This document shows positions 1,232 through 16,960 of a stretch of DNA of 44,620 nt, in pieces. The notes below the pieces were generated by a model that did not search any database, had not been told where the DNA came from, and worked only from the letters and a program-made list of their open reading frames with translations. How positions within the stretch are numbered: position 1 is the stretch's first letter; each line of letters begins with the position of its first letter. Origin of the DNA: an uncultured delta proteobacterium (GTDB taxonomy: Bacteria; Myxococcota_A; Polyangia; Polyangiales; Ga0077539); assembly GCA_903860995.1 (NCBI GenBank), contig CAIOSS010000784.1, positions 1 to 44,620 on the forward strand. The letters are read 5' to 3'. A program made the position numbers and the translations under genes.

Positions 1232-3013
1232 GTGACCACTCGCTCCTCCACGACCGTCCGCGCCGGGGTCCCGCTGCTGTGGATCCTGGGTGCCTGTAAC
1301 GGCGAGGCGGTCGTGGCGAGGGACGCGGGCGCCGCGCTGCGCGACACCTTCGCGGAGGTCATCGCGCCGAGGGACGCGGGCCCGGACGCCCCCCCGGAGG
1401 CGCCCCTCACCGCGCCGGTCGGGTACCGGCCCTGCCGGGACAGGGTGCGCGACCCGGAGGGCGGGTTCTGCGAGTCCACGGACCTTTGGCACATGCGGGC
1501 GGAATTCAGCCCCGAGAAGTCGGGCGCGGTCACCGTCGCCGACTTCGACGTGGACGGCTTCCCGGAGGTCATGGTGACCGTGCAGGACGGCAACCCCCCG
1601 ACGCTGCTCACGGCGCGCGTGGGGTTCTGGGAGAACGTCGCCGCGGCCTGGGGGCTCGCGGCCTACCACTCGCCGTTCGCGGTCGCGGTCGCCGACCTCG
1701 ACGGCGACGGCGACCCCGACATGGTGCTCGGGCTGGAGAACGGCTCCTCGAAGATCCTGCGCAACACGGGGACGCGCTTCGAGGAGGTGATGACGGTCGG
1801 CCAGCCGGGTCAGATCGCCGCGGTGTGGCTCGTCTGGGACATCGACCAGGACGGGCTGCTCGACCTGGTCGCGGGCGTCGAGCGGCAGGACGGTGACTGC
1901 CCCAACCCCTTCGGCATCCCGGGCTGTCCGGGCTTCGTCGCCGCGTGGCGGCAGTCGGCTCCGTGGGACTTCCGGCCGATGCCCGTCACGGCCCCCCGGC
2001 GGCGCGTGCAGGGGATGCGCATGCACGACTGGACCGGCGACGGCCGCGACGAGCTGCTCGTGACCAACGACATCGGCACGTACGACGGCGGCAGCCTGCT
2101 GCTGCGGGTCGAGTCGACGCCCGAGGGCTTCGCGCTGCGCGACGCCACGGCCGGGTCGGGCTTCGACCACGAGCTCTACGGCATGGGGATGGGCCTGCTC
2201 GACATCGACGAGGACGGCCGCAACGAGGTCGTGCTGACGAACATCGGCCACAACGTCGTGCTCACCGGCCGCCAGGGGCTGAGCGCCGACGTGAACCTGC
2301 TCCTCGCGCGCGACTGCTACGGCATGGTGATCCCGGGGGAGATGCCGACGTTCCGCTTCTTCGACGAGGAGAACCCGCGGGAGCGCGCCTGGGGGCGCTT
2401 CCAGGACCTGTACTTCGATCAGCGCTCGGCGCGGTTCCCGACCACGAAGTGGGCCCCGGTGGTCTTCGACTACGACGCCGACGGCCACGAGGACATGTAC
2501 GTCCCCGCCGGGAGCGTCCACACGGGCCCCGTCTTCCCCGAGCCCGACGTGCAGGCGAGCGTGCTCATGCGCGGCACCGGCGTCCGCATGGTCGACGTCA
2601 CCGACGGCCTGGCGCTCCGCGAGCGGATGAACGCCCGCGGCGCCGCGGCCGCCGACTTCGACCTCGACGGCGACCTCGATCTGGCCGTCTTCCACACGGG
2701 CGACGGCACCCAGGCGAGCCGCCTGCGCGTCCTGCGCAACGACGTGGCGGGCGGCCACCTGCTCGCCGTGGTCGCGCGGGGCCGCGGGGCGGCCCGGGAC
2801 GGCGTCGGCGCCCAGGTCGAGGTGCGCATCGGCGCCCGAACCATGCACCGGCGCATCGACGGCAACCTCTCACTCTACGGCACGGTGCCCCACGAGGTGT
2901 ACGTCGGCCTGGGCGCCGCGACGATGGCCGACGAGGTCGTCGTGCGCTTCCCCAGCGGCCGCACCGCCCGCCGCGAGCGGGTGCCCTTCGGCCGCGTCGT
3001 CGTCGAGGAGTGA
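1232..3013 (+). CDS. FG-GAP repeat / ASPIC(UnbV)-type lipoprotein (CRTAC1-like)
   Basis: The track ORF is 1103-3013. An in-frame GTG at 1232, 11 nt after the upstream stop, gives an n-region plus the LLWILGAC lipobox. Ca-binding-like loops are DFDVDGFPE, DLDGDGDPD, DIDQDGLLD, DWTGDGRDE, DIDEDGRNE, DYDADGHED and DFDLDGDLD. The C-terminal segment GVGAQVEVRIG...VYVGLG...VVVRFPSG is ASPIC/UnbV-like. The start is uncertain (1103 versus 1232). Confidence 0.85.
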   Translation: MTTRSSTTVRAGVPLLWILGACNGEAVVARDAGAALRDTFAEVIAPRDAGPDAPPEAPLTAPVGYRPCRDRVRDPEGGFCESTDLWHMRAEFSPEKSGAVTVADFDVDGFPEVMVTVQDGNPPTLLTARVGFWENVAAAWGLAAYHSPFAVAVADLDGDGDPDMVLGLENGSSKILRNTGTRFEEVMTVGQPGQIAAVWLVWDIDQDGLLDLVAGVERQDGDCPNPFGIPGCPGFVAAWRQSAPWDFRPMPVTAPRRRVQGMRMHDWTGDGRDELLVTNDIGTYDGGSLLLRVESTPEGFALRDATAGSGFDHELYGMGMGLLDIDEDGRNEVVLTNIGHNVVLTGRQGLSADVNLLLARDCYGMVIPGEMPTFRFFDEENPRERAWGRFQDLYFDQRSARFPTTKWAPVVFDYDADGHEDMYVPAGSVHTGPVFPEPDVQASVLMRGTGVRMVDVTDGLALRERMNARGAAAADFDLDGDLDLAVFHTGDGTQASRLRVLRNDVAGGHLLAVVARGRGAARDGVGAQVEVRIGARTMHRRIDGNLSLYGTVPHEVYVGLGAATMADEVVVRFPSGRTARRERVPFGRVVVEE

Positions 3014-4049: not shown

Positions 4050-5279
4050 ATGTCATGTCCACCCCTGAACCCACGGTGTGTCGGCTCCGTGTGCATGGCT
4101 CACGGAAAGGAATGTTTCCGTGAGCTAGACAGGCGCCCCCGGGCTCGGGTAGTGGCCTGGGGGGTGACGACCGGCCGCGCGCAGCGCCCCCCCGAGGCTC
4201 CCCCGTCCGCGATCACGGTCGTCGACGCTGCGAGCGGGCTGCCACCCGCGCTGGCGCAGCGGCTGGAGGGCGCGCGACGGTTCCTGCGCGAGGGCGCCCA
4301 CGCGACCGGCACCCGGCAAAAGTATGCCGAGGACTTCGCGCAGTTCAGCGGCTGGTGCCAGCGCCACGGGCTCAGCCCCCTGCCCGCCGAGCCGGGCCTC
4401 GTTGCCCTGTACGTCCACGCCTTGGTCGACCCCGACCCCTCGAACCCGCCGCGGGTCCGCCGGTCGCCCCACGGGCCGCGCGGCCCCGAGCCCGGCCGTG
4501 GGCCGATGCACCCCAGCTCCATCACCCGCGTCGTGGCGGCCATCCGCTACGCCCACACCCTCGAGGGGCTCGGCTCCCCTACCGCGCACCCGCTCGTGCG
4601 GGAGGCCTTGCGCGCCGCGCGCCGCACGGTCGGGGTCGCGCCCCGCCGCCGCGTCCAGGCGGCCGTCGCCGAGGTCGTGGGACGGATGCTGCTCGGGCTC
4701 GACGACTCCGCGCGCCACCGCCGCGACCGCGCGCTGCTCACGCTGGGCTTCGCTGGCGCCTTCCGCCGCGCGGCCCTGGTCTCCCTGAACCTCGCCGACG
4801 TGGTGCGGGTGCCCGAGGGCCTGGAGGTCACCCTGCGCCGCGACAAGACCGACCAGGCCGGCGCGGGTCGCACCCTCACCATCGCCCCTGGCGCCAGGGG
4901 CCCCACGTGCCCGGTGCTCGCGGTGCTCGCCTGGGTCGAGGCCCTCGCCGCGCTGGGCTTCACCGAGGGCCCGCTCTTCCGCTTCATCGACCGCCACGGC
5001 AACGTGCGCCCCGCCCACCGCCGCGCGGCCAGCGACCGGCTGAGCCCGCAGTCGGTCGCGCACGTCGTCCAGCGCCGGGCGCGGGCGGCGGGGCTCGACC
5101 CGGCGCAGTTCGCCGGCCACTCGCTGCGGGCGGGCTTCGTCACCAGCGCGACCCGCGCGGGCAAGGCCATCCCGAAGATCATGGAGCAGACCGGCCACCG
5201 GAGCGCCGACACCGTCATGGCCTACGTGCGCGAGGCCGACCGCTGGCGCGACCCGGCCTCCGGCGGCATTGGCCTCTAG
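4050..5279 (+). CDS. Tyrosine recombinase / phage-type integrase
   Basis: This is a 409-aa ORF. The N-terminal SAM-like core-binding segment reads TRQKYAEDFAQFSGWCQRHGL...LVALYVHAL. The catalytic region contains AFRRAALVSL (Arg I), HSLRAGFVTSA (H-x-x-R) and GHRSADTVMAYV (His...Tyr nucleophile). GGGAG lies at 4031-4035 upstream of ATG 4050. ATG 4095 is a possible alternative start. Confidence 0.85.
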   Translation: MSCPPLNPRCVGSVCMAHGKECFRELDRRPRARVVAWGVTTGRAQRPPEAPPSAITVVDAASGLPPALAQRLEGARRFLREGAHATGTRQKYAEDFAQFSGWCQRHGLSPLPAEPGLVALYVHALVDPDPSNPPRVRRSPHGPRGPEPGRGPMHPSSITRVVAAIRYAHTLEGLGSPTAHPLVREALRAARRTVGVAPRRRVQAAVAEVVGRMLLGLDDSARHRRDRALLTLGFAGAFRRAALVSLNLADVVRVPEGLEVTLRRDKTDQAGAGRTLTIAPGARGPTCPVLAVLAWVEALAALGFTEGPLFRFIDRHGNVRPAHRRAASDRLSPQSVAHVVQRRARAAGLDPAQFAGHSLRAGFVTSATRAGKAIPKIMEQTGHRSADTVMAYVREADRWRDPASGGIGL

Positions 5280-5286
5280 GACGCCA

Positions 5287-5356
5287 AGACGTTGAAACGT
5301 CTAGGTGTCCAGATGTCTGGAATACAAGACGTCTGGACGTTCAGACGTCTGGACGT
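5287..5356. promoter_or_regulatory. Iteron cluster 1 (AGACGT-type palindromes and direct repeats)
   Basis: A 16-bp palindrome agacgttgaaacgtct lies at 5287-5302, followed by gtccagatgtctgg at 5308-5320. agacgtctggacgt occurs twice, at 5327-5340 and 5343-5356 (16-bp period), and each copy contains the 8-bp palindrome AGACGTCT. The cluster sits between the recombinase stop and the stop of the FG-GAP gene. Confidence 0.75.
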
Positions 5357-5359
5357 CCG

Positions 5360-7369
5360 TCAGTCCCACCAGAGGCGCGGGCGGACCGCGAGCGCGACGC
5401 CGTCGATGCGCACGGTGACGGCCGCAGTGCCGGGTCCCGGCGGGGCGACCACCCGCGCGGTCCAGCCCTCGGGCCCGCGGACGGCCGGGCCCGCGAGCGT
5501 CCCGGCCCCCGCGAGCGCGACGTCGACCATGGCGTCGGCGCGCAAGGCCCCGGCCAAGTCGCGCGGGGTGATCAGCACCGTCACGGCGCTGCGCCCGTCG
5601 GCCGGCGCGTGGCGCGACGGCGGGGTGATGACCAGCGACGGCGGCTCGGTGATCGTGTGCGCGCGGTCGGCCGCGAGGTCGCGCAGCTCCTGGACGGCGC
5701 CGGAGGGCCAGGCGACCCGCAGTCGCGCGATGCGCGTCGCCCCGCCGAGGCCCACGGTCACGAAGGGCTCGTGCACGACGTACGGGTGCGCCGAGCCGCC
5801 GACGTAGCGCCGCAGCGGGCGCCCCCCCTCGTCGACCCAGACCGTGAGCCACGCGCCCACGCCGAGGTGGTTGCTCGTCGTGCCGCGCAGCCGGAGCACC
5901 ACGCCGTGCGCGCCGTTGTCGATGTCGTTGCGGTAGAGCCGCGGGAGCTCTTGCTGGCCGCCGACGGCCAGGTCGGCGTCGCCGTCGTCGTCCCAGTCCT
6001 CCAGGGTGAGCGTCCGCCACTGGCCGCGCCGCTCGAGGTGGAGGGCGGTCGTGACGTCGGCGAAGCGCAGGCCGCCCATGTTCTGGTAGGCCCCCACGAA
6101 CTGCGGGCCGATGAAGCGCTCGGGCGGGTCGGACCAGGCGGTCTGGTCGTTGCCGTGGGCGATGATCCAGTCGAGGCGGGTGTCGCGGTCGAGGTCGACG
6201 AAGGCCATGCTCCACGGGATCATCGCCCGCCCGTTGTCCGCGGACGTGGTCGGGACGCCGGCGGCGGCGGTCACATCCTCGAAGGGCCACGCGGCGGTCC
6301 CCCGGAAGAGCTGGTGGACGGGGTTGAGCGCGACCGCCAGGTCGAGCCGGCCGTCGTCGTCGAGGTCGTCGGCGCAGGCCGCCATCGGCGAGTTGAACGC
6401 GATGGTCGGGAAGCCCAGCTGCTCGCCGCGGAAGTACGACCGCGGCGGCGTCGGGTCGAAGGCCGCGAAGCGGGGGTAGCCCGCGGCGTCGGGCACGCCC
6501 GACCGGTAGAAGACCGGCGCGCTGTTGGGGTCGACGCAGCTCCAGCCGACCGACATGAGCACCCGCTCGCCGGGGGCGAAGCGGGCCGAGAAGGCCGCGT
6601 AGGGCTTGCTCACCTGCGGGATGGTCAGCAGGTCGGGCCGCTCGTCGAAGGTCCGCGGGCCGGTGCGCAGGAGCGCGTGGAGGTCGGTGCAGGGCGTGCG
6701 GCAGCAGTCGGTGGCCACCAGGAGGTCGAGCCAGCCGTCGTCGTCGAGGTCGTCGAGGAAGTAGCTCAGGATGCGCGACGACATCATCCAGTCGGAGGGG
6801 CGCGCGTCGAGCGGGGCGGGCTGCGAGAAGCCGGCGCCCTCGCCCCAGGCGAGGGCCCGCGAGCGCTCGAGCGCGATCAGGTCGTCGCGCCCGTCGCCGT
6901 CGAGGTCGAGGATGCCCGCGAGCGGGGGCATCTCCGGGAGCCGCGCGCCGGCCACCCGCACGAACTGCCGGGCCGCGCGGTCGTAGCGGTAGACCGCGTA
7001 GGGGGCGGGCATGCCCCGGACGATGGAGTCGTCGGTGGGCCAGTGCGAGACCACGAGTTCGTCGCGCCCGTCGCCGTCGACGTCACCCACGAGCGGCGAC
7101 AGCTCGTCGGTCGAGAACATCTCGCGCGACGCCGCCGGGATGACGAAGGGCGCGTCGCGCTCGAGGGGGAGGGTCAGGTCGGTGAAGCCCGGCCCGAAGG
7201 CGCGGGGCGGCGGGACGTCGAAGGGCACGTCGCGCTTTGGAGGGCCGACGTCGTCGGGGCGCACCGCCGCGTCGGGCGCCGGCCCGGGCGCCGCGTCGCA
7301 CCCCTCGAAGCAGAACACCACGGCGAGCATGAGCGGCGGAAGCAGGGCGGGGCGCACGGTCGGTACCAT
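5360..7369 (-). CDS. FG-GAP repeat / ASPIC(UnbV)-type lipoprotein with C-terminal Ig-like tail
   Basis: This is a 669-aa ORF with the signal/lipobox LMLAVVFCFEGC. Loops are DVDGDGRDE, DLDGDGRDD, DLDDDGWLD, DLDDDGRLD, DLDRDTRLD and DWDDDGDAD. The segment GVGAWLTVWV...VTVGLG...LRVAWPSG is ASPIC-like. The tail ends RPRLWWD. It is a close paralogue of 42379-44400. Confidence 0.9.
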   Translation of the reverse strand: MVPTVRPALLPPLMLAVVFCFEGCDAAPGPAPDAAVRPDDVGPPKRDVPFDVPPPRAFGPGFTDLTLPLERDAPFVIPAASREMFSTDELSPLVGDVDGDGRDELVVSHWPTDDSIVRGMPAPYAVYRYDRAARQFVRVAGARLPEMPPLAGILDLDGDGRDDLIALERSRALAWGEGAGFSQPAPLDARPSDWMMSSRILSYFLDDLDDDGWLDLLVATDCCRTPCTDLHALLRTGPRTFDERPDLLTIPQVSKPYAAFSARFAPGERVLMSVGWSCVDPNSAPVFYRSGVPDAAGYPRFAAFDPTPPRSYFRGEQLGFPTIAFNSPMAACADDLDDDGRLDLAVALNPVHQLFRGTAAWPFEDVTAAAGVPTTSADNGRAMIPWSMAFVDLDRDTRLDWIIAHGNDQTAWSDPPERFIGPQFVGAYQNMGGLRFADVTTALHLERRGQWRTLTLEDWDDDGDADLAVGGQQELPRLYRNDIDNGAHGVVLRLRGTTSNHLGVGAWLTVWVDEGGRPLRRYVGGSAHPYVVHEPFVTVGLGGATRIARLRVAWPSGAVQELRDLAADRAHTITEPPSLVITPPSRHAPADGRSAVTVLITPRDLAGALRADAMVDVALAGAGTLAGPAVRGPEGWTARVVAPPGPGTAAVTVRIDGVALAVRPRLWWD

Positions 7370-7375
7370 GTCGCG

Positions 7376-8248
7376 TCAGCGCGGGGGCGGCGCCCCGGCC
7401 CGGGCGCCCGCGGTCCCCGCGTCGAAGGGCGGACCGACCACCGCGCAGCGTCCCTCCGCGCAGACCTGGTTGGGGGCGCAGCGGGCGCCGCAGCCGCCGC
7501 AGTTGAATGGGTCGTTGGCGGGGTTGGCGCAGTACGCGCCGCACGCCACCTGCGGGGCGGCGCAGCGCGCCGGGTCCGCCGCGAGGCCGCCGTCCCTCCG
7601 GGCGACGGACTCCACGCAGCGGCCCGCCGCGCAGAGCTGGCCGGGAGCGCAGCGGGTGCCGCAGCCGCCGCAGTTGAGCGGGTCGGTGCTCGTGGCCACG
7701 CAGTACGCGCCGCACCGGACGCTGGGCGGGGTGCAGCCCGTCGCGGACGGCGTGCCCAGGCCCAGGCCCGGCCCGGCGGCGACGCATTGGCCCACGGCGC
7801 AGATCTGCCCCGGCGCGCATCGGTTGCCGCAGCGCCCGCAGTGCAGGGGGTCGATCGCAACCGTGGCGCAGTATGGGCCGCAGCGGGTCTGTCCCTCGGC
7901 GCACGCCGCCGGGCCCGCGTCGGACCCGCACACGCCCGCCGCGCACACGGAGCTGCTGGTGCAGGCGCGGCCGCAGCCGCCGCAGTTGGCGACGTCCGTC
8001 TGCGGGTCGACGCAGCGCCCGTCGCAGAGGATGCCCCCGGGGCACGGCGTCGCGGCCGGCGGACGCTCGCCGGGGGCGTCGGTCGGCGGCGTCGCCGCGT
8101 CCGCGGGACCGACGCGCGCGGGTCGGACGACCCCGGCATCGGCACTCCGAGCGGGCCGTTTGTTGTCCCTGCAAGCCAGGCCGACGCAACACAGTCCGAG
8201 CAGAACCCACAGCTTCCGTTCGCCGGATGCCTGACGCATGGGCGGCAT
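7376..8248 (-). CDS. Cys-rich repeat lipoprotein (DPxNCGxCG modules)
   Basis: This is a 290-aa ORF with the signal/lipobox WVLLGLCCVGLAC. Five modules of the form C..G...C.G.C.....D..(N/H)CG.CG..C..GQ.C..G.C follow. Its stop lies 6 nt before the start of 5360-7369, the same gene pair order as 1-1221 followed by 1232-3013. Confidence 0.85.
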   Translation of the reverse strand: MPPMRQASGERKLWVLLGLCCVGLACRDNKRPARSADAGVVRPARVGPADAATPPTDAPGERPPAATPCPGGILCDGRCVDPQTDVANCGGCGRACTSSSVCAAGVCGSDAGPAACAEGQTRCGPYCATVAIDPLHCGRCGNRCAPGQICAVGQCVAAGPGLGLGTPSATGCTPPSVRCGAYCVATSTDPLNCGGCGTRCAPGQLCAAGRCVESVARRDGGLAADPARCAAPQVACGAYCANPANDPFNCGGCGARCAPNQVCAEGRCAVVGPPFDAGTAGARAGAPPPR

Positions 8249-8296
8249 TGTAGACGAGTTTGGCGCCCGCCCTCCAATGCCTCGTGCACGAGACCC

Positions 8297-8971
8297 CTAC
8301 GAAGAGTGGGGTGGCGTGGGGCGGCGCGACCGCCGTCGTGCTTCCCAGAGCGCGCCGACGAGCAGCGCGCCGAGGAGGACCCTGCCCACCGAGAACTGCC
8401 CGCTCCGGTCGCGCACGTACCAGGGACCCGTACCCGCCCCAGGCGCGCGGGGCGTGCCGCCGGTCCCGGGCGCGCGGGGGGTCGCACTCCTCACCAGCCC
8501 GCGGGGGGCCGCCGTGACCCCGACCGACCCGCTCCTCGCCGGCGCCGTCCGGGCCTCGGGCACGGCGGCGGCCTCGATCCATCGGACGGCCGACTCGCGG
8601 GGGCGCACCCGCGCGATCACGGCATCGAAGAGGCCGAGGGGCTTCGCCGCGGGCGTCCGGGCGTAGACCGCGAGGCCGCCCGCGCGCGTCGCCCCGGACG
8701 GTGCGGTCGCGGGATGGTGGAGCTCGAGGGTCACCACCTCGGGCTCGGACGCGCAGCGGTACTGCCCGGTGACCTGGCGCGTGGTCACGTGCGCGCTGGC
8801 GAGGCGGCAGCCGCCCGGCAACAGGTCGGGCCCCCCCAGCATCGCGCTGAAGAGCGGCTCCTGCCCGGGCGGGAGCACGGGCAGGAGCTCGTCGGGCCGC
8901 GCCGACCGGGGGGGCGGCCGGTCGCAGCCGAGCGCGAAGCCGGCGAGCAGGAGCAGGGCGGCGCGGGTCAT
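8297..8971 (-). CDS. Small lipoprotein with C-terminal hydrophobic segment and Arg-rich tail
   Basis: This is the 3' 675 nt of track ORF 8297-10519. ATG 8971 overlaps the stop (8968-8970) of the upstream membrane-protein gene as ATGA. The N-terminus MTRAALLLLAGFALGC is a good lipobox. The C-terminus reads GRVLLGALLVGALWEARRRSRR. Confidence 0.7.
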   Translation of the reverse strand: MTRAALLLLAGFALGCDRPPPRSARPDELLPVLPPGQEPLFSAMLGGPDLLPGGCRLASAHVTTRQVTGQYRCASEPEVVTLELHHPATAPSGATRAGGLAVYARTPAAKPLGLFDAVIARVRPRESAVRWIEAAAVPEARTAPARSGSVGVTAAPRGLVRSATPRAPGTGGTPRAPGAGTGPWYVRDRSGQFSVGRVLLGALLVGALWEARRRSRRPTPPHSS

Positions 8972-10653
8972 GGGACGTCCCACCGCAGGACGGCGAGGCG
9001 CACCACCGCGTCGGCGCTCGGCATCTCGAACTGGGGCGGCCGGGAGCGCGCCAGGGGGCGCGTGGCCACCACCCGCCAGGGCGCCGCGCCCAGCGCGCGC
9101 GCGCACTGGGGCAGCAGCCGCCCGTAGGGCGAGGCGGTCATCGGCTGCGGGGCGGCACCCCCCTCCGACGGCGCCGGGAAGGAAGACCGGTCGATGAAGC
9201 ACGCCCGGTCGAGCATCAGGAAGACCGGGCGGTCGCGCCCGGGCCGTAGCGAAGGGAGGGCGGCAGCGCGGATGATCGACCACGAAGGCCGTTGTACCGC
9301 GATCCACTGCGCCGGGAGGTGAGTGAGGGGGTCGTCGTCGAAGGTCACCGCCGTCGCGTCGCGCGGGGCCGCCGCGAGGACGTCGCGGAAGAAGTGGTAC
9401 TCCGCGGTGAGCGGGAGGTCGGGGCGGTACCCGAGGGGGCGCCGCGCGAGCGAGACCGCCGCGAGCAGCGCGACCGCGGCCGGGGCCGCCGCACCCCAGC
9501 GCGGCCCGAGGCCCCGGGCGGCCAGGCCCACGCACGCCGCGACGGGGAGCAGGAGCAGCGCCATCGAGAGCAGCTGGTGTCGCAGGTGGGTGGGGAACCA
9601 GCCGCTGCGCACGAGCCCGCCCTCCAGCAGCGCGACGGCGGCCGGGAGCAGCACGCCCAGGGCGAGGCGCCCGTCGCGCCGGGCCACGCACCACAGCGCC
9701 AGGAGCACCGGCGAGCCCAGCATGGCCCAGGCCTGCCACCGCGGGATGAAGGGTTCGAACCACCCCATCCAGTGCGCGTTGCGGCCGACGGCGCCGTCGA
9801 ACGCCCACGGCAGCGCCGGCGAGCCGAAGTAGCCGGGCGTCGCGGTCTGCTGGCGCCAGGCGAGCAGCACCTGGACGGCCTGGGGTAGCAGCAGAAGCGT
9901 CATCGCGCCGCAGACGGCGAGCGCGGCGCGCCACGGCGTCCGCCTCGACGGCGTGCGCGCCGAGAGGAGGGCGGGCACCGCGAGGGCCGAGAGCGGGAGC
10001 GTGACCTCCCGGGCGCCCGCCCCCAGGCAGAGGAGCGCGGTGCCCAGCGCGAGCGTGCCGCGCAGCCCGTCGCGGGCCCCCGCGTGCAGGAGCGCCATCC
10101 CGGCCAGGCAGAGCCCTGACCCCGAGACCAGGAACTCGTCGGTGGGCCCGAGCGCGATCGCCAGGGGCTGCAGCCCGAGGAGCGCCGCGGCGGCCCACCC
10201 CGCGGCCCGCGAGCCCGTGACCTGCGCGGCGAAGGCCGCCAGCGCGACGACCGAGGTCGCGGAGAGCAGGGCGTCGAAGAGGAAGGTGCTCTCGTCCGCG
10301 ACGCCCACGACGGCGCCGAAGAGGCGGAGCAGGAGGATGTGCGCCGAGGGGACGCCGTGCGACTCGGCCGACTCGTTCACGGCGCCCAGCGACGACACGT
10401 GGTGGTAGCCGTGGTGGTTCTCGTGGATGAGGGTGTGCGTCGCCAGGCCCCAGCGGAGCGCGAACGCGAGCACGAAGAGCGCTGCGCCGAGGGCCGCGTC
10501 GCGCCGACGGCCGACCCACGGAACCCCCGCGAGCTCGCCGACGGCGCGCGGGAGGGCCGCGAGCGCCGCGACGGCGAGCGCCAGGAAGACGAGCACCGGG
10601 AACGTGCGGAACGTGGGCTGGAGGAGCAGCTGCAGCGAGATGCCGGGGCTCAT
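8968..10653 (-). CDS. Polytopic membrane protein, HENHH family paralogue 1 (GT-C-like topology, function unknown)
   Basis: The track ORF is 8968-10695 (GTG). ATG 10653 (MSPGISLQLLLQ...) matches the N-terminal length of the paralogues. By eye there are about 10-12 hydrophobic segments. The invariant HTLIHENHHGY is encoded at 10405-10437. A C-terminal soluble part of about 150 aa follows. It is paralogous to 26790-28469 and 38690-40378. Confidence 0.85.
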   Translation of the reverse strand: MSPGISLQLLLQPTFRTFPVLVFLALAVAALAALPRAVGELAGVPWVGRRRDAALGAALFVLAFALRWGLATHTLIHENHHGYHHVSSLGAVNESAESHGVPSAHILLLRLFGAVVGVADESTFLFDALLSATSVVALAAFAAQVTGSRAAGWAAAALLGLQPLAIALGPTDEFLVSGSGLCLAGMALLHAGARDGLRGTLALGTALLCLGAGAREVTLPLSALAVPALLSARTPSRRTPWRAALAVCGAMTLLLLPQAVQVLLAWRQQTATPGYFGSPALPWAFDGAVGRNAHWMGWFEPFIPRWQAWAMLGSPVLLALWCVARRDGRLALGVLLPAAVALLEGGLVRSGWFPTHLRHQLLSMALLLLPVAACVGLAARGLGPRWGAAAPAAVALLAAVSLARRPLGYRPDLPLTAEYHFFRDVLAAAPRDATAVTFDDDPLTHLPAQWIAVQRPSWSIIRAAALPSLRPGRDRPVFLMLDRACFIDRSSFPAPSEGGAAPQPMTASPYGRLLPQCARALGAAPWRVVATRPLARSRPPQFEMPSADAVVRLAVLRWDVP

Positions 10654-10710
10654 CGGGGGTGCGCTAGGGGTCTCTATGCCCGAGATCCCACGCACCGCAT
10701 ACCGCGGCGT

Positions 10711-11259
10711 TCACGGTCCGCCGGCGAGCACGAGCGAGCGCCCGTCTCGCCCGCCGCGCAGGGCGCCGCCGACCTCGCGCACCGCGACCTCGAGGCGCAC
10801 CCGCCGGCCGACCAGGAGCGCGGGGTTCGACTGGAGGAAGATGCACAGCTCGGCGTTGCTGGACTGCAGCCCGTCGCCCCACGCCTCGAGGCCGGCCCCG
10901 AGCCGTCGCCGCAGCGGGGGCCCGAGGATCGACAGCACCTCCGCGGAGTCATGGTCGACGACGCGGAACGACACGTAGAGGTCGGGCGAGAGCCCCGCGA
11001 CGCGCAGCCGCGCGAAGAGGTGCACGCCCCCCTGCGGGCCGCGCGTCGGGGCGAGCGCCGCGCCGTCCGCGAGGTCCTCCCACGCCGATCGACCGGTGCC
11101 GAGCGTGACGGCGGCGCTGCCAGGGGGGAGGGCGAAGAGGTCGGCCGGCCGCGGCCCGCCGTCCATGTCGACCGGCGCACCGGGCGTCTCCCCGGCGCAC
11201 GCCAGGAGGCCCAGGAGGACGGTCAGGGGGGCGGAGGGGGGCGGGAAGAGTGGGCGCAT
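10711..11259 (-). CDS. Hypothetical lipoprotein
   Basis: This is a 182-aa ORF starting at ATG 11259 with the signal/lipobox LTVLLGLLACAG. It has good G/C third-position bias. It is the first gene of the minus-strand string 11259->5360. I recognised no domain. Confidence 0.6.
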   Translation of the reverse strand: MRPLFPPPSAPLTVLLGLLACAGETPGAPVDMDGGPRPADLFALPPGSAAVTLGTGRSAWEDLADGAALAPTRGPQGGVHLFARLRVAGLSPDLYVSFRVVDHDSAEVLSILGPPLRRRLGAGLEAWGDGLQSSNAELCIFLQSNPALLVGRRVRLEVAVREVGGALRGGRDGRSLVLAGGP

Positions 11260-11327
11260 GAACCGCCGCGAGCGGCGCTCCTTCGACCAGACTGTAGTGC
11301 GTTCCGGCGCACCGGGCGTCTCCCCGG
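11172..11327. repeat. Perfect 24-bp direct repeat ccggcgcaccgggcgtctccccgg (11172-11195 and 11304-11327)
   Basis: Read directly. One copy lies inside the 5' coding region of 10711-11259, where it encodes GETPGAPV. The other lies in the intergenic region right next to iteron cluster 2. Confidence 0.9.
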
Positions 11328-11333
11328 TCTGAG

Positions 11334-11402
11334 CGTTGAAACGTCTGAACGTCTCAGCGCCTTATCGTCTGGACGACGAAGCGTCCGAGGGTCTAGACGT
11401 CT
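11334..11402. promoter_or_regulatory. Iteron cluster 2, upstream of parA (candidate partition site/operator)
   Basis: cgttgaaacgtct at 11334-11346 is identical to 5290-5302. It is followed by gaacgtct (11347-11354), atcgtctggacga (about 11364-11376) and the AGACGTCT palindrome at 11395-11402. The cluster ends 6 nt before the proposed parA GTG. Confidence 0.65.
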
Positions 11403-11407
11403 CGGCC

Positions 11408-12100
11408 GTGATCGTTGCACTGACCGGACAGAAGGGCGGCGTCGGCAAGAGCACCCTGGCGATCTGCATCGCCGCGGAGCTGCTCGCCCGGCGCCACAAG
11501 GTGCTGCTCGTCGACGCCGATCCGCAGGGGACGATCCGCACCTGGGGCGAGGTCGCGGTCGACGCGGGGCAGCCCCTCCCGAGCATCGTCGCCATGGGCT
11601 CGACGATGCACCGGGCCGACCAGCTCCCGACGGTGCGCCTGGGCTACGACGACGTGATCATCGACTGTCCGCCGCGGCACGGGGAGATCCAGCGCTCGGC
11701 GCTCATGGTGGCCGACATGGCGATCCTGCCGTGCGGCCCCTCGTCGGCGGACGCCTGGGCGCTCGGGGCGAGCATCGACCTGGTCAACGAGGCGCGGACG
11801 CTGCGCTCCGACCTCGAGGTGCGCATCCTGATCACCCGCAAGCAGGGCCGGACGGCGCTGGGGCGGAGCGCCCGCGAGGAGCTCGAGAAGAGCGGCATCG
11901 AGCTGCTCAAGACCGAGGTCGGCTACCGGGTCGCGTTCGCCGAGGCGCTCGGCGCGGGGCAGGGGGTGACCGCGTACGCCCCCAAAGACGCTGCGGCAGA
12001 TGAGACCCGCGCGCTGGTCAGTGAGCTGCTGCTCTGGGAGAAGAATCATGGCACGCAAGAAGCCCCCGCTCAGCCTGCGAAGGCCGGGCGACGTCGTTGA
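11408..12100 (+). CDS. parA: ParA-family partition ATPase (deviant Walker A)
   Basis: Track ORF 11336-12100 starts at a TTG inside the iterons. The in-frame GTG at 11408 gives VIVALTGQKGGVGKST, with the Walker A motif at the usual distance from the N-terminus. Further ParA-like segments are LLVDADPQG and DDVIIDCPP. The start is uncertain. Confidence 0.85.
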   Translation: MIVALTGQKGGVGKSTLAICIAAELLARRHKVLLVDADPQGTIRTWGEVAVDAGQPLPSIVAMGSTMHRADQLPTVRLGYDDVIIDCPPRHGEIQRSALMVADMAILPCGPSSADAWALGASIDLVNEARTLRSDLEVRILITRKQGRTALGRSAREELEKSGIELLKTEVGYRVAFAEALGAGQGVTAYAPKDAAADETRALVSELLLWEKNHGTQEAPAQPAKAGRRR

Positions 12101-12410
12101 CCCGCAGCGGGCCGAGCACTTCGTCCGCGGCCTGACGCCCGCGGCGCCCGTCGAGGCCCCAGCCCCGGCGGTGGTGCCGCCGGACGTCGAGGCGTCCAGA
12201 CGTCCAGACGTCCAGGCGCCCGCCGTGTCGGGGTCGAAGGCACTGGTGTATCGCAAGCGCACCGACGACCACCGCCGCCGGATGACCATCTACCTCCCGG
12301 AAGACCTCTCGCGCCGACTGCGCCTCTACGCCGCCCAGCACGACCAGGACTACAGCGTCGTGCTCGCCGAGGCCCTGGACGCCCTGCTCGCCCGCAAGGG
12401 CGTCCGCTGA
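12048..12410 (+). CDS. Ribbon-helix-helix (CopG/ParG-like) protein, probable centromere-binding partner of ParA
   Basis: ATG 12048 is preceded by GGGAG (12036-12040, 7-nt spacing). The C-terminus RRMTIYLPEDLSRRLRLYAAQHDQDYSVVLAEALDALLARK has the beta-strand plus two-helix RHH pattern. The gene overlaps the parA 3' end by 53 nt. The track ORF begins at 12000. Confidence 0.7.
   Translation: MARKKPPLSLRRPGDVVDPQRAEHFVRGLTPAAPVEAPAPAVVPPDVEASRRPDVQAPAVSGSKALVYRKRTDDHRRRMTIYLPEDLSRRLRLYAAQHDQDYSVVLAEALDALLARKGVR
12193..12216 (+). repeat. 8-bp tandem cgtccaga x3 (iteron-related) inside the RHH gene
   Basis: cgtccaga occurs at 12193-12200 and 12201-12208, and cgtccagg at 12209-12216. ggacgtcgagg precedes it. 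The motif is the complement-type of the GTCTGGACG iteron half-sites. Confidence 0.8.
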
Positions 12411-12777: not shown

Positions 12778-14481
12778 GTGCTCCGCGCGACCACGCCGCT
12801 GGGGATGGCGGAGGCCATCGAGGTGGCCTTCGGCGAGGACGGGCGGCTGGTGATCTGCGGCGCGCGCATCGGCCCGATGGTCGTCGACGCCAGCGACCAG
12901 GCCGCGCCGCGCCCCTACCCCCCGACGGTGACGACCCTCGGCGCCGCAAAGTACCGGCGCTGCTCGCACGTTACGGTAGCGGGCTCGGTGGCCTACGTGA
13001 CGTTCCGGGCCGACTCGACCATGCCCTCGTACCTCGCGGCGGTGGAGCTGTCCGCCGCCCCGGCGGTCGTGGCGGTCTACAACGCGCCGGCCGGGCGGGT
13101 GTTCGAGGCCTCCGTCGCGCGCAACGGCCTGGTGATGGTGGCGATGCACCAGGACGGCCTGGGCGTGTTCGAGCGCGCGGGCGAGGCCTTCACGGAGCGC
13201 GCGACGCTCGGCGGCCTCACCAACGCCTACGGCCTCGCGCTCGACGGCAGCACGCTCTGTGTCGCCGACGGCGAGGGGGGCCTGGCCACGGTGGACGTCA
13301 GCGACCCGGGCGCCCCGCGGGTCGTCGGCCGGGTCGCGACCGGCGGGGTTGCGCAGTCGGTGGTGGTCGACCCCTCCAACCACATGGCGTACGTGAACGT
13401 GGGGGCCGGCGGCGTCGTGATCGTCGACGTGGCGCGCCCCGAGGCGCCGGCGCTCGCCGGTCGGGTCGCGACCGGTGGGACGGTCGGGCAGCTCTCCGTG
13501 GAGAGTGGGCGGCTCTACGTGGCGGCGTGGCGCGACGTGCGGGTGTACGCCCTCGACGACCCCCGACGCCCCGCCCTCGTCGGCGTCGCCCGGCCCGCCC
13601 AGAACGACCAGCTCGTGCGGGTGATGGGCGTCGCCGCGCACGGGGATGCCGTCGCGGTCGCCAACTGGAACTACCTACAGACGTGGCGCTTCCGTCCGGG
13701 GTACGCGGCGCCATACCTCGAGACCTCGCCCGAGCCGGTGGCGCTCGGCCGCACCGCCGTCGGCGCTACTACGGATGCCTTCTTCGTCGTCGAGAACCTC
13801 GGGCGCGCCCCGCTCGCGGGCCTCACCGCGCGGAGCGATGACCCAGCGTTCGAGGTGGATCCCGCGTCCCTGACCCTCGAAGCCGGTGAGAGCCGCGAAC
13901 TGCGTGTGCGCTACCGCGCGGCCGACCTGACGCCGCGCCGCGCGACGCTCGCGCTGCAAGGCGACGGCGACGCAGCGAACGCCGTCGCGGTCGAGCTGCA
14001 CGCGAACTCCGTCCACCTCACTGTAGGCGACCGTGCGCCCGACGAGGTCGTGCAGCGCGCCGACGGCTCGGAGTGGCGCCTCGCCGACCAGCGCGGCCAC
14101 GCGGTGCTGCTCACCTACTTCAGCACGTGGTGCCCGGTCTGCGGCCTCGACCTGCCCGACGTCGAGGTGAACGTCTGGCGTCGCTACCGCGCGCGCGGCC
14201 TCGAGGTGGTCGGCGTCGACCCGCCCCTGGCCACGTTCCGTGCGCCCGACACGCTCGCCGACGTGGCCGCGTTCGTCCGCTACCTGGGCCTCACCTTCCC
14301 ACTGGGGGTGTCGACGACGTCGGTCTACGACACCCTGCGCATGGGGCGCAGCGACGAGTCCGCCCCCTTCCCGCTGACAGTGCTCGTCGACCCGGCCGGG
14401 CGCATCGCCTACCTCGGCAACACCATCAATCCGGTCGCCCTCGACGCCGCCATCGAGCGCACACTGTCGGGAGCCCCGTGA
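12778..14481 (+). CDS. LVIVD-repeat beta-propeller + Ig-like + TlpA/redoxin (WCPVC) protein; N-terminus possibly disrupted
   Basis: This is a 567-aa ORF from GTG 12778. LVIVD-like units include GGLATVDVSDPGAPRVVG, GGVVIVDVARPEAPALAG and VRVYALDDPRRPALVG. A middle beta-sandwich-like segment follows. The C-terminal thioredoxin fold reads VLLTYFSTWCPVCGLDLP. An in-frame ATG 12661 plus a short hydrophobic peptide is cut off by TAG 12727-12729 (see findings). Confidence 0.8.
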   Translation: MLRATTPLGMAEAIEVAFGEDGRLVICGARIGPMVVDASDQAAPRPYPPTVTTLGAAKYRRCSHVTVAGSVAYVTFRADSTMPSYLAAVELSAAPAVVAVYNAPAGRVFEASVARNGLVMVAMHQDGLGVFERAGEAFTERATLGGLTNAYGLALDGSTLCVADGEGGLATVDVSDPGAPRVVGRVATGGVAQSVVVDPSNHMAYVNVGAGGVVIVDVARPEAPALAGRVATGGTVGQLSVESGRLYVAAWRDVRVYALDDPRRPALVGVARPAQNDQLVRVMGVAAHGDAVAVANWNYLQTWRFRPGYAAPYLETSPEPVALGRTAVGATTDAFFVVENLGRAPLAGLTARSDDPAFEVDPASLTLEAGESRELRVRYRAADLTPRRATLALQGDGDAANAVAVELHANSVHLTVGDRAPDEVVQRADGSEWRLADQRGHAVLLTYFSTWCPVCGLDLPDVEVNVWRRYRARGLEVVGVDPPLATFRAPDTLADVAAFVRYLGLTFPLGVSTTSVYDTLRMGRSDESAPFPLTVLVDPAGRIAYLGNTINPVALDAAIERTLSGAP

Positions 14482-15359
14482 GGCGCCCGACAGGCCGCCG
14501 GGCCGCCGGGCTCCTCCTGCTCCTCGCGCTGGGGGCCGGCTGCGCGCCCGAGCCCGGCGCTCTGGCCAGCGCCCCCCCGGCGGCGGGGGACGCGCCAGCG
14601 GCCCGCTGCGCGCCCGGCATGACCTGGGTCGGGATCGTCGAGGGCCGCGTCGTCGACGAGCGCGGCGAGGCGCTCCCCGACGAGCGCGTCGGCTTGTGCG
14701 GGGCGACGTGCTTCGGCTCCAACACCCGCTCCGACGGCCGCTTCTCGGTCCACGCCGACTTCTGCTTCCCCACCTCACGGGAGTTCCCGCAAGGCGCGGT
14801 CTTCGACGTGTACGGGCTCGGCTACCGCCCGGACGTGTCCATCGGCTTCAACCCCCGCGAGCTCGCGTCCCTCGAGCACGTCTCGCTCGGCGACGTGAGG
14901 CTGCCCGGGCTCTTCGGCGCGCCGTCGGTGCCCGTGCCGGGCGCGGCCGACCCGGCGCAGCGCCTCACGCTGCCCGACGGCTTCTCCCTCTCGATCGCGC
15001 CCGACAGCCTCGCGCTGGGGTTCAACAGCATCGCGCGCGTGAGCGCGGTGCGCGTCGAGCGCGCCGACCTGCCCCCCTTCCACGGTCGCGACGACGCGGG
15101 GTTGAGCGCCTTCTACGCGCTCACCCCGTCGGGCGCCCGCTGCAGGCGGCCGGCGCCCGCCACGCTGCCGAACGACGCGAGCCTCGCGGCCGGCGCCGAG
15201 GTCGAGATCGTGATGGTGGGTGAGCCCCTGGCGGGCGACGTCCTCCCGCCCGGGTCGATCGGCGTCGTCGACCGGGGGCGCGTGACGGCCGACGGCCGGT
15301 CGATCGTCACCGACCGCGGCCTGCCCTTTCTCGGGTGGGTGGGCTACCGCGTGCCCTGA
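14478..15359 (+). CDS. Lipoprotein with CarboxypepD_reg-like beta-sandwich segment
   Basis: GTG 14478 overlaps the upstream stop as GTGA. The N-terminus RRAAGLLLLLALGAGC is a lipobox. GRVVDERGEALPDERVGLCG...SDGRFSV resembles the carboxypeptidase regulatory-like domain. Track ORF 14073-15359 is in the same frame. Confidence 0.65.
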   Translation: MRRPTGRRAAGLLLLLALGAGCAPEPGALASAPPAAGDAPAARCAPGMTWVGIVEGRVVDERGEALPDERVGLCGATCFGSNTRSDGRFSVHADFCFPTSREFPQGAVFDVYGLGYRPDVSIGFNPRELASLEHVSLGDVRLPGLFGAPSVPVPGAADPAQRLTLPDGFSLSIAPDSLALGFNSIARVSAVRVERADLPPFHGRDDAGLSAFYALTPSGARCRRPAPATLPNDASLAAGAEVEIVMVGEPLAGDVLPPGSIGVVDRGRVTADGRSIVTDRGLPFLGWVGYRVP

Positions 15360-16960
15360 GCCGGCTCAGGGCGCGCGGGCCCGCGCACCCGGTAGAGCGT
15401 CACCCGCATGACCGGGTGGTTCCGCTCGAAATCGTGGACGTTGACGTCCTTCGAGAGCCCCGAGGTGAAGAACATGAACACCTCCCGCCAGCGCGCGGTC
15501 TGCATCACGGGCTGCAGCTCGAAGCGGCCGAACACGGCGTCGTAGGGGGCGGACGCCGGCCGGCCGAGGGCCCGCTGCGCGTCGCACTCCAGGCCGCAGA
15601 AGAAGTAGACGTCGCGGCGGGCGAGGTCGATCCGGGCGGGGTCATCGATGAACGACGGCCCGCGCGGGGAGGGGGCCTCGCCCCAGTGGAGGTACCTCTC
15701 GTAGTAGGCGCGCACGCGCTCGCCCTGGCGGTTGACCGCGAGGGGGATCTCCAGCACCTGGTCGCCGGGGCGGAGGAGGTGGGCGGCGCGGGCCACCAGC
15801 CGGTACTCGTACTGGTAGTCGAGGTCCTTGCGGATGTAGCTCGCCGACAGCCACGGCATCGACAGCACGAGGGCCATCGCGGGCGCCCACATCCACGGCC
15901 ACCGGATAAGGCGCGCCGCGTGCGCGGACATGATGATCAGGGGGTAGATGAGCTGCAGGAAGTACTTGGAGTTGCCCACGACGGTCTCGGACAGGGCGAC
16001 CGAGGTGATGGCCATCGTGCCGAGGTACCAGAGCGCCACGAGGGCCATGCCCTCAGGCATCGACGCGGCGAACACCACGGTGCCCAGGGCGAGGAGGGCG
16101 AGCCCCGGCCAGGAGACCACCCACGGGTTGAAGAGCACGTTGTGTGCGGAGAAGAAGAGCTGCTTGAAGCTGTGGAGGATCTGTACCGAGTGCCGCGGGC
16201 TCAGCATCTGGGTGCTGGAGTCGAGCACCCGGATGAAGCCGAGGTTGATCGCCAGCAGCGCGGCCAGGAAGGCCCAGAGCGCCGGCTGCGCGCGGACGTC
16301 GCGGCGGTAGAGCACCGCGAAGACGTAGAGCACCGGGAAGGACAGGAAGTTCAGCGGGCGGGTGAGCAGGAACGAGGGCAGGACGAGGAGCATCACGAGC
16401 CCGGTGGGGGCCTGCGCGCGCCAGTCGCTGCGCTTCATCGTGAGGTGGAAGAGCACGAACACCAGCGCGCCTAGGAAGAGCGAGCTGATCACCGGCGCCT
16501 CGGTGGAGGAGAGCTTGATGTGCATCGGGTGGCAGGCGAGCAGCCACGCCGAGAACCAGCTCATGGCCTTCCGCCCGAAGATGAGCTCGGTGTGCAGCGC
16601 GATGAGCAGCGGCGAGAGGACTGCCAGCGCCATGTTGAGCCCGAACGCCCCGCGGTAGGGGCTGAACGCGACCCCCACGAGGTGGTCCGCCGCGACGCTC
16701 AGCAGGACGATCACCCGCGGCAGCCGCTCGATGGCCGTGAAGTGGGTGTGCTCGTAGACGACGGGGTTGTAGAAATACCAGCGGAGCCCGACGGTCACCG
16801 CCAGGAGCGCGGCGAGGTGCAGGAGGTCGCGGGGGTCGCTGACCAGGCTGCGGCGGAACTGGTCGAGGAAGATGAGGAGGGCCAGCAGGAGGGCAGCCAC
16901 CTGCGCGAAGACCCAGGCGTCGCCGTTGAGGGCCTCGACAAACCAGGATGGGTAGTACAT
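15344..16960 (-). CDS. Polytopic membrane protein, divergent relative of the HENHH family (GT-C-like topology)
   Basis: This is a 538-aa ORF with many hydrophobic segments. LRWYFYNPVVYEHTHF sits at the position of LRW....HTLIHENHHGY in the three paralogues. The C-terminal soluble part contains PGDQVLEIPL, compared with PGDRFVTLPG/PGDRFVVLTG in the paralogues. It is the last gene of the 26413->15344 operon. Its GC content is lower than the window average. Confidence 0.8.
   Translation of the reverse strand: MYYPSWFVEALNGDAWVFAQVAALLLALLIFLDQFRRSLVSDPRDLLHLAALLAVTVGLRWYFYNPVVYEHTHFTAIERLPRVIVLLSVAADHLVGVAFSPYRGAFGLNMALAVLSPLLIALHTELIFGRKAMSWFSAWLLACHPMHIKLSSTEAPVISSLFLGALVFVLFHLTMKRSDWRAQAPTGLVMLLVLPSFLLTRPLNFLSFPVLYVFAVLYRRDVRAQPALWAFLAALLAINLGFIRVLDSSTQMLSPRHSVQILHSFKQLFFSAHNVLFNPWVVSWPGLALLALGTVVFAASMPEGMALVALWYLGTMAITSVALSETVVGNSKYFLQLIYPLIIMSAHAARLIRWPWMWAPAMALVLSMPWLSASYIRKDLDYQYEYRLVARAAHLLRPGDQVLEIPLAVNRQGERVRAYYERYLHWGEAPSPRGPSFIDDPARIDLARRDVYFFCGLECDAQRALGRPASAPYDAVFGRFELQPVMQTARWREVFMFFTSGLSKDVNVHDFERNHPVMRVTLYRVRGPARPEPAQGTR

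Follow-up and report, generated by a model that had tools for sequence, protein, structure and literature searches.

A divergent GT-C-fold membrane protein with a histidine-rich first external loop and an overlapping lipoprotein partner gene in an uncultured member of the Polyangiales

Glycosyltransferases of the GT-C fold build and decorate cell surfaces, from N- and O-glycoproteins to lipid A modifications and mycobacterial arabinan, and an aspartate in the first external loop (EL1) is regarded as central to how they work. All GT-Cs compared in PMC7801869 have Asp as the first residue of an Asp-Asp or Asp-Glu motif in EL1 (ArnT D55/E56, Pmt1 D77/E78, EmbB D281/D282) and its substitution abolishes activity; a divalent metal lies between the two substrate sites, and the donor phosphate is contacted by a Lys/Glu of EL3 and by an Arg before transmembrane (TM) helix 10. 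In three-component extracytoplasmic glycosylation, a GT-C works with a polyprenyl-phosphate-sugar synthase and a flippase (PMC11127046). Here we analyse a stretch of 44,620 nucleotides from an uncultured member of the Polyangiales (contig CAIOSS010000784.1; its whole length is referred to as the window) and focus on mem1 (8968–10653, minus strand), which encodes a 561-residue polytopic membrane protein with the motif HENHH and overlaps the gene of a 224-residue lipoprotein, lipoB (8297–8971, minus strand). We find that mem1 has the GT-C fold (Pfam clan CL0111), and we argue that it is probably a periplasm-facing glycosyltransferase that depends on a lipid-phosphate-linked sugar, has a histidine-based EL1 centre and works in complex with lipoB.

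The preliminary description of this locus, made from the letters alone, could assign mem1 to no characterised family, and direct searches agree with it: mem1 has no Pfam, NCBIfam or PDB sequence match, PMT_2 being absent even at E ≤ 1, and PDB sequence searches with mem1, with the profile of its close family (alignment A3) and with the relative P0076 returned only noise. A word-indexed protein search with mem1 retrieved 13 clusters at 49–100% identity, none with a precomputed Pfam domain, and the named sources of these close homologues are metagenome-assembled genomes (MAGs) of Myxococcota (Myxococcaceae, Polyangiales, ‘uncultured Myxococcales’). Repeating this search from alignment A1 gave the same 13 proteins and no addition, and using the paralogue mem2 as the query gave six further family proteins.

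More distant relationships were reached with a hidden Markov model (HMM) search, in which a 15-member family profile found 169 proteins at E ≤ 1e-3 among 1.84 billion representatives. Within a set of 58 distant relatives, Pfam recognised PMT_2 in 21 and PMT in 3, and several exceed the PMT_2 (PF13231) gathering score of 26.1 (P0076 with 41.5 bits, P0084 with 38 bits), a threshold that mem1 does not reach and that only its more distant relatives do. When the close family (A3) was aligned with the PMT_2-positive subgroup (A7) by hhalign, the two matched with 99.87% probability (E = 9.6e-32) over 474 columns. The profile of the 58 distant relatives also matched STT3A among PDB sequences, over its TM core (E = 1.2e-6), as well as a fungal oligosaccharyltransferase (OST) chain (1e-3); with a larger, 129-sequence profile (A5), the STT3 signal was lost. 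Weak NCBIfam matches among the relatives fall on GT-C or GT-C-like families (Agl23, archaeal STT3, WsfD) and on unrelated families with tetratricopeptide repeat (TPR) domains. The HMM searches, which had been proposed as a check, place the mem1 family with PMT_2 and STT3 relatives, and the homology of mem1 to an established GT-C family, resting on the hhalign match to the PMT_2-positive subgroup and on STT3A, is detectable and indirect but strong.

Structure prediction leads to the same fold. An AlphaFold2 model of mem1 built on a 19-sequence alignment (mean predicted local distance difference test (pLDDT) score 74, predicted template modelling (pTM) score 0.78) has 12 predicted TM helices, followed by a C-terminal periplasmic alpha/beta domain (residues ~404–561; 8971–9444, minus strand) with a cysteine pair, C485 and C517. 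Compared with the PDB by Foldseek, the model has only GT-C proteins as its top 24 matches (probability 0.93–1.0, E values from 2e-6 to 5e-2). The GT-C matches comprise ALG9 (2e-6), ALG12, Pmt4 (3e-4), ArnT (5f15; 3e-4, probability 1.0) and DPY19, together with PglB, STT3/human OST, AftA, AftD, EmbB/C and AglB. The same comparison had been suggested for metalloproteases, and no M48, M50 or M56 structure is among the matches listed.

The predicted topology turns the conserved loops outwards. Arg-rich loops of mem1 (RRRD at 48–51, SARTPSRRTP at 231–240, RD at 326–327) alternate with loops that between them bear all the conserved polar residues, and a positive-inside count on the AlphaFold2 helices puts the His-rich EL1, the loop with the motif PTDE, the long flexible loop 269–304 and the C-terminal domain with its Cys pair all on the non-cytoplasmic side. 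Relative to canonical GT-Cs, mem1 has one extra N-terminal TM helix; GT-C TM1 has its counterpart in the helix with AFALRW at its end, and this helix is directly followed by the HENHH motif. Because its relatives link it to PMT_2, their profile matches STT3A and the Foldseek list is GT-C throughout, we conclude that mem1 is a GT-C-fold protein of a PMT_2-like lineage, too divergent for curated models. The GT-C reading of ArnT/PMT type, offered from the start as one of two, is borne out by fold, homology, loop topology and motif placement.

The motif itself, HTLIHENHHGY (10405–10437, minus strand; residues 73–83), lies after the second hydrophobic helix, as first described, and opens the first periplasmic loop, where canonical GT-Cs have their EL1 Asp-Glu. 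All 19 close family sequences carry it without change, and residues 70–119 of mem1 hold 8 His in 50 residues. Conservation extends well beyond the source genome: across 129 family members, H77 (115), N79 (105) and H81 (115) are kept in 81–89%, next to R67 (122), E78 (85) and G82 (94) in the same region, P163 (125), [TS]171 (124), [ED]172 (123), R215 (103) and R358 (115) further on, and E418 (117), C485 (120) and C517 (122) towards the C terminus. As H80 is variable, the family signature is H-[E]-N-x-H-G and not HENHH as such. A second subfamily, a side branch, carries LHEY[FY]H[IV] and in this way keeps H-E-x-x-H.

HENHH had also been noted to fit, formally, the HExxH pattern of zincins, and this spacing is indeed conserved, both in the three paralogues of the window and in the side branch. 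Residues 71–81 are predicted to be helical, as in zincins, and the motif region of one relative weakly matches the His-rich metal-binding CbtB family (8.6e-5), a hint of metal binding. These features would suit a zincin-type membrane zinc metalloprotease that has H77-E78-x-x-H81 as its catalytic residues and processes the co-encoded lipoproteins, a reading that the preliminary description held to be equally open. We now consider it very improbable: Pfam and NCBIfam contain no peptidase family that matches mem1 or any of the 58 relatives; the listed structural matches, with their 24 leading GT-Cs, include no metalloprotease fold; hhalign gives 99.9% for homology to PMT_2 proteins; and the catalytic Glu that a zincin requires is lost in 44 of the 129 members, about one third of the wider family, while H77, N79 and H81 stay. 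The conserved HExxH spacing therefore makes a metal-binding role within a GT-C active site plausible.

Further conserved residues may fall where GT-Cs bind metal or donor phosphate. The motif P-T-D-E (10135–10146, minus strand; residues 170–173) in the second periplasmic loop comes within two residues of the D-N-E metal motif of STT3 in HMM alignments. In R-E-V-T-L-P-L (9991–10011, minus strand; residues 215–221), at a periplasmic turn, the column of R215 holds 103 Arg, 13 His and 2 Lys among the 129 sequences, and R215 is a candidate for binding phosphate, whose counterpart by position would be the EL3 K-E-T/Q-x-x-T of TMTC/ArnT-type GT-Cs (PMC7801869). The pair R358-H359 (9577–9582, minus strand) stands immediately ahead of TM11, equivalent to canonical TM10 if the extra N-terminal helix is left out of the count, and R358 would match in position the Arg that the GT22 and STT3 families conserve ahead of TM10 (PMC7801869). 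At its start, EL1 of mem1 reads H73-x3-H77-E78-N79-H80-H81, with an acid, E78, that is invariant in the close family only, and with no Asp conserved there. Phosphate-binding features appear to be kept in mem1 while the core carboxylate gives way to an i/i+4 pair of histidines, correspondences that are positional only. Our literature searches found no paper that combines GT-C with HExxH.

The second distinguishing feature of mem1 is its partner gene. The stop codon of mem1 and the start codon of lipoB share ATGA at 8968–8971 (minus strand), an overlap already described and here read directly (...GTC CCA TGA / ATG ACC...). An [AG]TGA overlap of the two genes is kept in 7 of 7 mem1-type loci, whose enzymes are 49–75% identical, and a lipoB homologue follows every mem1-type gene examined. 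The lipobox of lipoB (LLLLAGFALGC, Cys16) has a Cys that is conserved in orthologues, and the C-terminal hydrophobic segment (residues 193–211) with its RRRSRR tail is present as initially described. The orthologues share the lipobox, a domain of ~100 residues with two conserved Cys, a variable linker and, at the C terminus, a TM helix and an Arg-rich tail. Pfam and NCBIfam gave no match for lipoB, and its single-sequence model is poor (pLDDT 58, pTM 0.38), with insignificant Foldseek matches (best E = 0.24). The conserved overlap suggests that mem1 and lipoB form a two-subunit unit, and the pattern of lipoB is typical of a stoichiometric subunit. We also considered its tail as a MYXO-CTERM or PEP-CTERM sorting signal and dropped this candidate, as the conserved Cys or PEP motif of such signals does not precede the TM segment.

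An alternative reading looks to GT-C-fold proteins that transfer no sugar, such as PIG-U, a subunit of the glycosylphosphatidylinositol (GPI) transamidase, and Agl23, which is associated with flippase activity. By analogy, mem1 might be a lipid-binding or scaffold subunit that handles, together with lipoB, a lipid-linked intermediate or the lipoB tail. PIG-U is among the weaker Foldseek matches (7w72_U, 9ub7_B) and Agl23 among the weak NCBIfam matches of the relatives; lipoB, strictly co-translated with mem1, has a hydrophobic C terminus and a basic tail that resemble a sorting signal; and the canonical EL1 Asp is seemingly replaced (PMC7801869). We nevertheless judge a scaffold role unlikely, since the strong conservation of the periplasm-facing H77, N79, H81, [ED]172, R215, R358 and E418 is typical of an active site, the genes are placed among sugar-activating enzymes, and paralogues of the mem2/mem3 type, which have no lipoB partner, yet retain the same motifs.

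As an active GT-C, mem1 would be an inner-membrane enzyme whose active site opens to the periplasm, where a sugar would pass from a polyprenyl-phosphate-linked donor to an extracytoplasmic acceptor. The most likely task of H77 and H81, in which E78 and the acid of EL2 (D172/E173) would probably take part, is to coordinate a divalent metal or to contact the donor phosphate directly, and R215 and R358 would be likely phosphate clamps. The enzyme would be made in a fixed ratio with lipoB, a putative doubly anchored periplasmic lipoprotein, which would most likely be a subunit of it, serving as acceptor adaptor or stabiliser, and not a mere neighbour.

The family was reported to be present three times in 44 kb, and tblastn recovers the two paralogues of mem1 far beyond chance: mem2 (26790–28469, minus strand; 559 residues, HTLIHENHHGY, E = 7e-62) and mem3 (38690–40378, minus strand; 562 residues, HTLVHENHHAY, E = 7e-78), with HTL[IV]HENHH[GA]Y as the consensus across paralogues. 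mem2 and mem3 are ~59% identical to each other and each is ~39% identical to mem1. Two genes for FG-GAP/ASPIC lipoproteins, with Pfam matches and lipoboxes, lie upstream of mem3 (40407–42347 and 42379–44430, minus strand), which is 28 nucleotides downstream of the nearer one. A gene of this family stands directly upstream (22–43 nucleotides) of the mem3-type gene in four of four loci, the window and the related loci L009, L010 and L013. The MAG GCA_044228995.1 (L014 8001–10246, L003, L009) has at least three family members, two of mem1 type, each with its own lipoB, and one of mem3 type; the expansion into paralogues is therefore not peculiar to the window.

At a GC content of ~75%, lists of open reading frames (ORFs) from the window are full of spurious frames. 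All five minus-strand ORFs of the preliminary description are present where it placed them, and most of the string is supported by framing through GC content at third codon positions (GC3), a filter by which the Cys-rich gene and lipoB are unresolved as separate ORFs. For mem1, the start at ATG 10653 gives the 561-residue form, orthologue N termini agree with it and the database holds an identical 561-residue protein (P0001). Upstream of mem1 lies lipoA (10711–11259, minus strand), a 182-residue lipoprotein with the lipobox LLAC and Cys21 (by a regular expression for the PROSITE PS51257-type rule) and with no Pfam or NCBIfam family match. It is separated from mem1 by 57 nucleotides. None of the related loci carries a homologue of lipoA, which led us to reject it as a part of the system; of the translational coupling claimed between mem1 and its lipoproteins, the part that concerns lipoB stands, on the ATGA overlap, and the part that concerns lipoA falls. 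A scan of 5200–11500 for terminators and promoters, uninformative at 75% GC, found nothing.

Downstream of lipoB, the Cys-rich protein (7376–8248, minus strand) is a STIG1-like lipoprotein, matching Stig1 in Pfam (5.5e-24) and the MXAN_6577-like family NF041328 in NCBIfam (2e-37) and fitting the lipobox rule with Cys26. The FG-GAP/ASPIC gene (5360–7369, minus strand) begins 6 nucleotides past its end and encodes a secreted protein with a C-terminal Ig-like domain. Its family, as first given, is confirmed by Pfam (FG-GAP_3, 5.9e-21; UnbV_ASPIC, 5e-11), but its designation as a lipoprotein is not, for the sequence at the called start (VVFCFEGC) departs from the lipobox rule; both of its FG-GAP paralogues conform to that rule. 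In five related loci (L003, L011, L012, L001 and L006), STIG1-like genes again lie no more than about 5 kb from the mem1–lipoB pair. Within the window, a second Cys-rich protein (4–1221; Stig1, 4e-23) is followed by another FG-GAP/ASPIC gene (1103–3013). Four 195-nucleotide tandem repeats at 286–1065 (plus strand), 63–93% identical to the first copy, encode STIG1-like Cys-rich modules of the second Cys-rich protein, and the contig starts with a perfect 36-nucleotide tandem repeat in three copies (1–124, plus strand).

Around the paralogues the window encodes a sugar pathway. RmlA (20702–21826, minus strand; dTDP-glucose synthesis) scores 419 bits against TIGR01208 (cut-off 320) and RmlB (about 21772–22824, minus strand; 4,6-dehydration) 434 bits against TIGR01181 (cut-off 365). 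Three genes resemble epimerases or dehydratases of the short-chain dehydrogenase/reductase (SDR) type: two are divergent from mem2 (28560–30610, plus strand; Pfam Epimerase, 7e-26 and 4e-43) and one is convergent with mem3 (37631–38674, plus strand; Pfam Epimerase, 2.5e-40). An SDR gene is convergent with the mem3-type gene in L009 and L010 as well, and L013 has a radical S-adenosylmethionine (radical-SAM) gene between the two. Several radical-SAM proteins are also encoded in the window. In the syntenic loci L009 (2884–7130) and L010 (899–5161), the unit of FG-GAP and GT-C genes is adjoined by an operon for a B12/radical-SAM enzyme (HpnJ/AprD4-like), a GT2, two single-TM peptides of ~50 residues, a polysaccharide deacetylase and an SDR. 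The best matches of the GT2 are polyprenyl-phosphate sugar synthases (PpgS, 2e-22; AglJ, dolichyl-P-hexose transferase and ArnC). The operon resembles the Arn/Lgm pathways for amino sugars on lipid and the logic of hopanoid HpnI/K/J, and it is a likely source of the lipid-linked donor.

As for the acceptor, our slightly favoured guess would be the co-encoded secreted proteins: enzymes of the mem1 type would act on the STIG1-like Cys-rich repeat proteins, those of the mem2/mem3 type on FG-GAP/ASPIC proteins. Almost the same likelihood attaches to a glycolipid or glycan of the envelope. In the latter case mem1 would be an active GT-C that modifies lipid A or the core of lipopolysaccharide (LPS), exopolysaccharide (EPS) or a hopanoid-type lipid and no protein, in parallel to ArnT, Bordetella LgmB, Francisella FlmK and Gtr/GT136, with the neighbouring lipoproteins as unrelated cargo or accessory factors. 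We hold this full alternative to be possible, if tentative. It draws on the nearest sequence family, PMT_2, which includes ArnT-type lipid A transferases, and on the set of GT2, deacetylase and SDR in the syntenic loci, which recalls the logic of the Arn/Lgm pathways, in which an amino sugar is built on undecaprenyl phosphate. The adjacent SDRs and radical-SAM enzymes, moreover, find their best matches, below threshold, in the hopanoid-associated HpnA and HpnJ, and FG-GAP genes are absent from the more distant mem1–lipoB loci. Against it speak the constant position of the FG-GAP gene next to the mem3 type, the STIG1-like genes near the mem1 type in five loci, three paralogues in one 44-kb cluster, which fit acceptor-specific enzymes, and the window itself, which showed no genes for LPS or EPS assembly. 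Literature searches on FG-GAP or STIG1 in myxobacteria found only unrelated papers or papers on TraA kin recognition.

Several observations weigh against a glycosyltransferase function for mem1. The link of mem1 to glycosyltransferases is, at the level of sequence, a transitive one, made through relatives while mem1 itself matches no curated model, and all source names seen for family members read ‘hypothetical protein’. The Foldseek TM-scores are modest (about 0.34–0.50), and pLDDT drops below 50 at residues 75–98, 163–174 and 270–301, which are the motif-bearing loops. The EL1 Asp of characterised GT-Cs (PMC7801869) appears to be replaced by His, and E78 gives way to A, G, T, N, C or V in the 44 members that lack it; classical GT-C catalysis can therefore not be assumed for mem1. 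Finally, the window has no gene for a polyprenyl-phosphate GT2 or a flippase; from synteny, such genes would be expected where the contig breaks off, at 44620. No flippase recognisable as GtrA or MATE was detected. We still regard a lipid-phosphate-sugar-dependent glycosyltransferase in complex with lipoB as the probable function, on the combined strength of fold, homology, topology, conserved polar residues and sugar-pathway context. A more radical version, which we think improbable, is a GT-C scaffold with a zincin-like His-Glu-x-x-His metal centre and an obligate, doubly anchored lipoprotein subunit, carrying out chemistry new to GT-C proteins. Such chemistry could be a metal-dependent reaction that attaches an unusual sugar or cyclitol, modified by radical-SAM enzymes, to Cys-rich repeat proteins, or else the cleavage and lipid remodelling of the partner’s C-terminal anchor, by analogy with the PIG-U-containing GPI transamidase.

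The surroundings of the mem1 operon have traits of a mobile element. A tyrosine recombinase gene (Phage_integrase, 3e-10; 4050–5279, plus strand) and a pair of genes for ParA and a ribbon-helix-helix (RHH) protein (11336–12410, plus strand) bracket the operon, and a ParA/RHH pair adjoins the mem1-type gene in L003 too. Periodic 8-bp iterons, (G/A)ACGTCTG, occur at 5290–5357, 11335–11400 and 12183–12220 of the window, at 9062–9075 of L003 and at 885–898 of L010; matches to GACGTCTGGACGTC with at most 2 mismatches number 10, where 1.2 are expected. In the window the iterons flank the mem1 operon and occur at the start of parA (11336–12100) and inside the RHH gene (12000–12410), and in L003 they lie next to ParA/RHH. 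They resemble the repeats of a type Ib partition system, either those of a centromere or those of a ParG-type operator, and the mem1 cluster may be part of a plasmid-like or integrative element. A tRNA scan of the window found none, leaving no att-tRNA explanation for the integrase.

Some other neighbours recur in related loci. A 1186-residue protein with two radical-SAM domains (16983–20543, minus strand), HxsC-like at the N terminus and B12-radical-SAM-like at the C terminus, is followed by a 538-residue protein without family (15344–16960, minus strand), and this pair is conserved beside ParA and a mem1-type gene in L003 (3678–8861). An 884-residue radical-SAM protein, a PSD/DUF1592-family protein and an HXXSHH/DUF1552 protein are encoded in this order at 31975–37575 (plus strand), a trio that is syntenic in L009, L010 and L013 beside the mem3-type GT-C. 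Proteins of 866 and 242 residues (22830–25430 and 31610–32338, minus strand) have weak DUF483 matches. Downstream of mem2 lies the gene of a 325-residue secreted protein with a Cys-rich N terminus (25436–26413, minus strand), and the pair of 325-residue and ~860-residue proteins recurs in L010 with no adjacent GT-C gene. Near the Cys-rich gene cluster, a 567-residue protein (12778–14481, plus strand) has LVIVD repeats and an Ig-like domain together with an AhpC/TSA-redoxin domain at the C terminus, an unusual architecture for a secreted thiol-oxidoreductase; a DsbA-family gene directly precedes the GT-C in another mem1 locus.

Set beside described enzymes, mem1 shares with ArnT (GT83; 5ezm/5f15) and PMT_2 proteins the GT-C fold, a similar size, ~12–13 TM helices with a C-terminal periplasmic domain and active-site loops that face the periplasm, and, judging by position, it would have basic residues where ArnT binds undecaprenyl phosphate. 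It differs in H-E-N-H-H, apparently in place of D55/E56, in its extra N-terminal TM helix and in its obligate overlapping lipoprotein gene, and the window has no operon of arnBCADEF type. ALG9 and ALG12 (GT22), eukaryotic mannosyltransferases of the endoplasmic reticulum lumen with Dol-PP-oligosaccharide acceptors, lead the structural comparison (E = 2e-6 to 2e-4, TM-score 0.44–0.50) and are of similar length with no large soluble domain, but identity is 10–12% and sequence profiles favour PMT_2 and STT3 over GT22. With STT3/PglB/AglB (GT66), the likeness lies in the alignment of the relatives’ profile to the STT3A TM core, in P...[TS]-[ED] falling within two residues of D-N-E and in a metal-dependent site made of EL1 and EL2 residues, which we propose for mem1 too; the differences are a much smaller C-terminal domain, His apparently in place of Asp as the EL1 ligand and the absence of a WWDYG-type acceptor motif from the alignments. 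PMT/Pmt4 and TMTC/TMEM260 (GT39 and relatives) again have the GT-C fold, three mem1 relatives match Pfam PMT and one has C-terminal TPR repeats as in TMTC. An enzyme dedicated, as in these families, to modifying one particular protein domain outside the cytoplasm would suit the favoured acceptor. Their essential acidic D-E/D-D (PMC7801869) contrasts with H-E in mem1, which also lacks a MIR domain. The three-component systems (Gtr, GT136, Arn/Lgm), lastly, are matched in the syntenic loci by a PpgS/AglJ/ArnC-like GT2, small TM peptides, sugar-modifying enzymes and GT-C paralogues; the GT2 and small-peptide genes are outside the window, and what the mem1 cluster has in addition are radical-SAM enzymes, a GT-C in three paralogous copies, and secreted proteins and lipoproteins as dedicated partners.

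If mem1 were merely an ArnT-like lipid modifier, the outcome would be a useful annotation and no surprise. If active, the clade would show how much remodelling a GT-C active site tolerates, perhaps with a metal bound by histidines at its centre; the conserved mem1–lipoB overlap offers a testable two-subunit system, and the recurrent pairing with STIG1-like and FG-GAP/ASPIC proteins nominates acceptor candidates that could open up protein or envelope glycosylation in myxobacteria. Measured against known systems, the fold and the general system are familiar; what is new is an unannotated clade invisible to Pfam and NCBIfam, in which H-E-N-x-H-G appears to replace a supposedly universal Asp-Glu, with a strictly overlap-coupled lipoprotein partner and with paralogues paired to specific families of secreted proteins.

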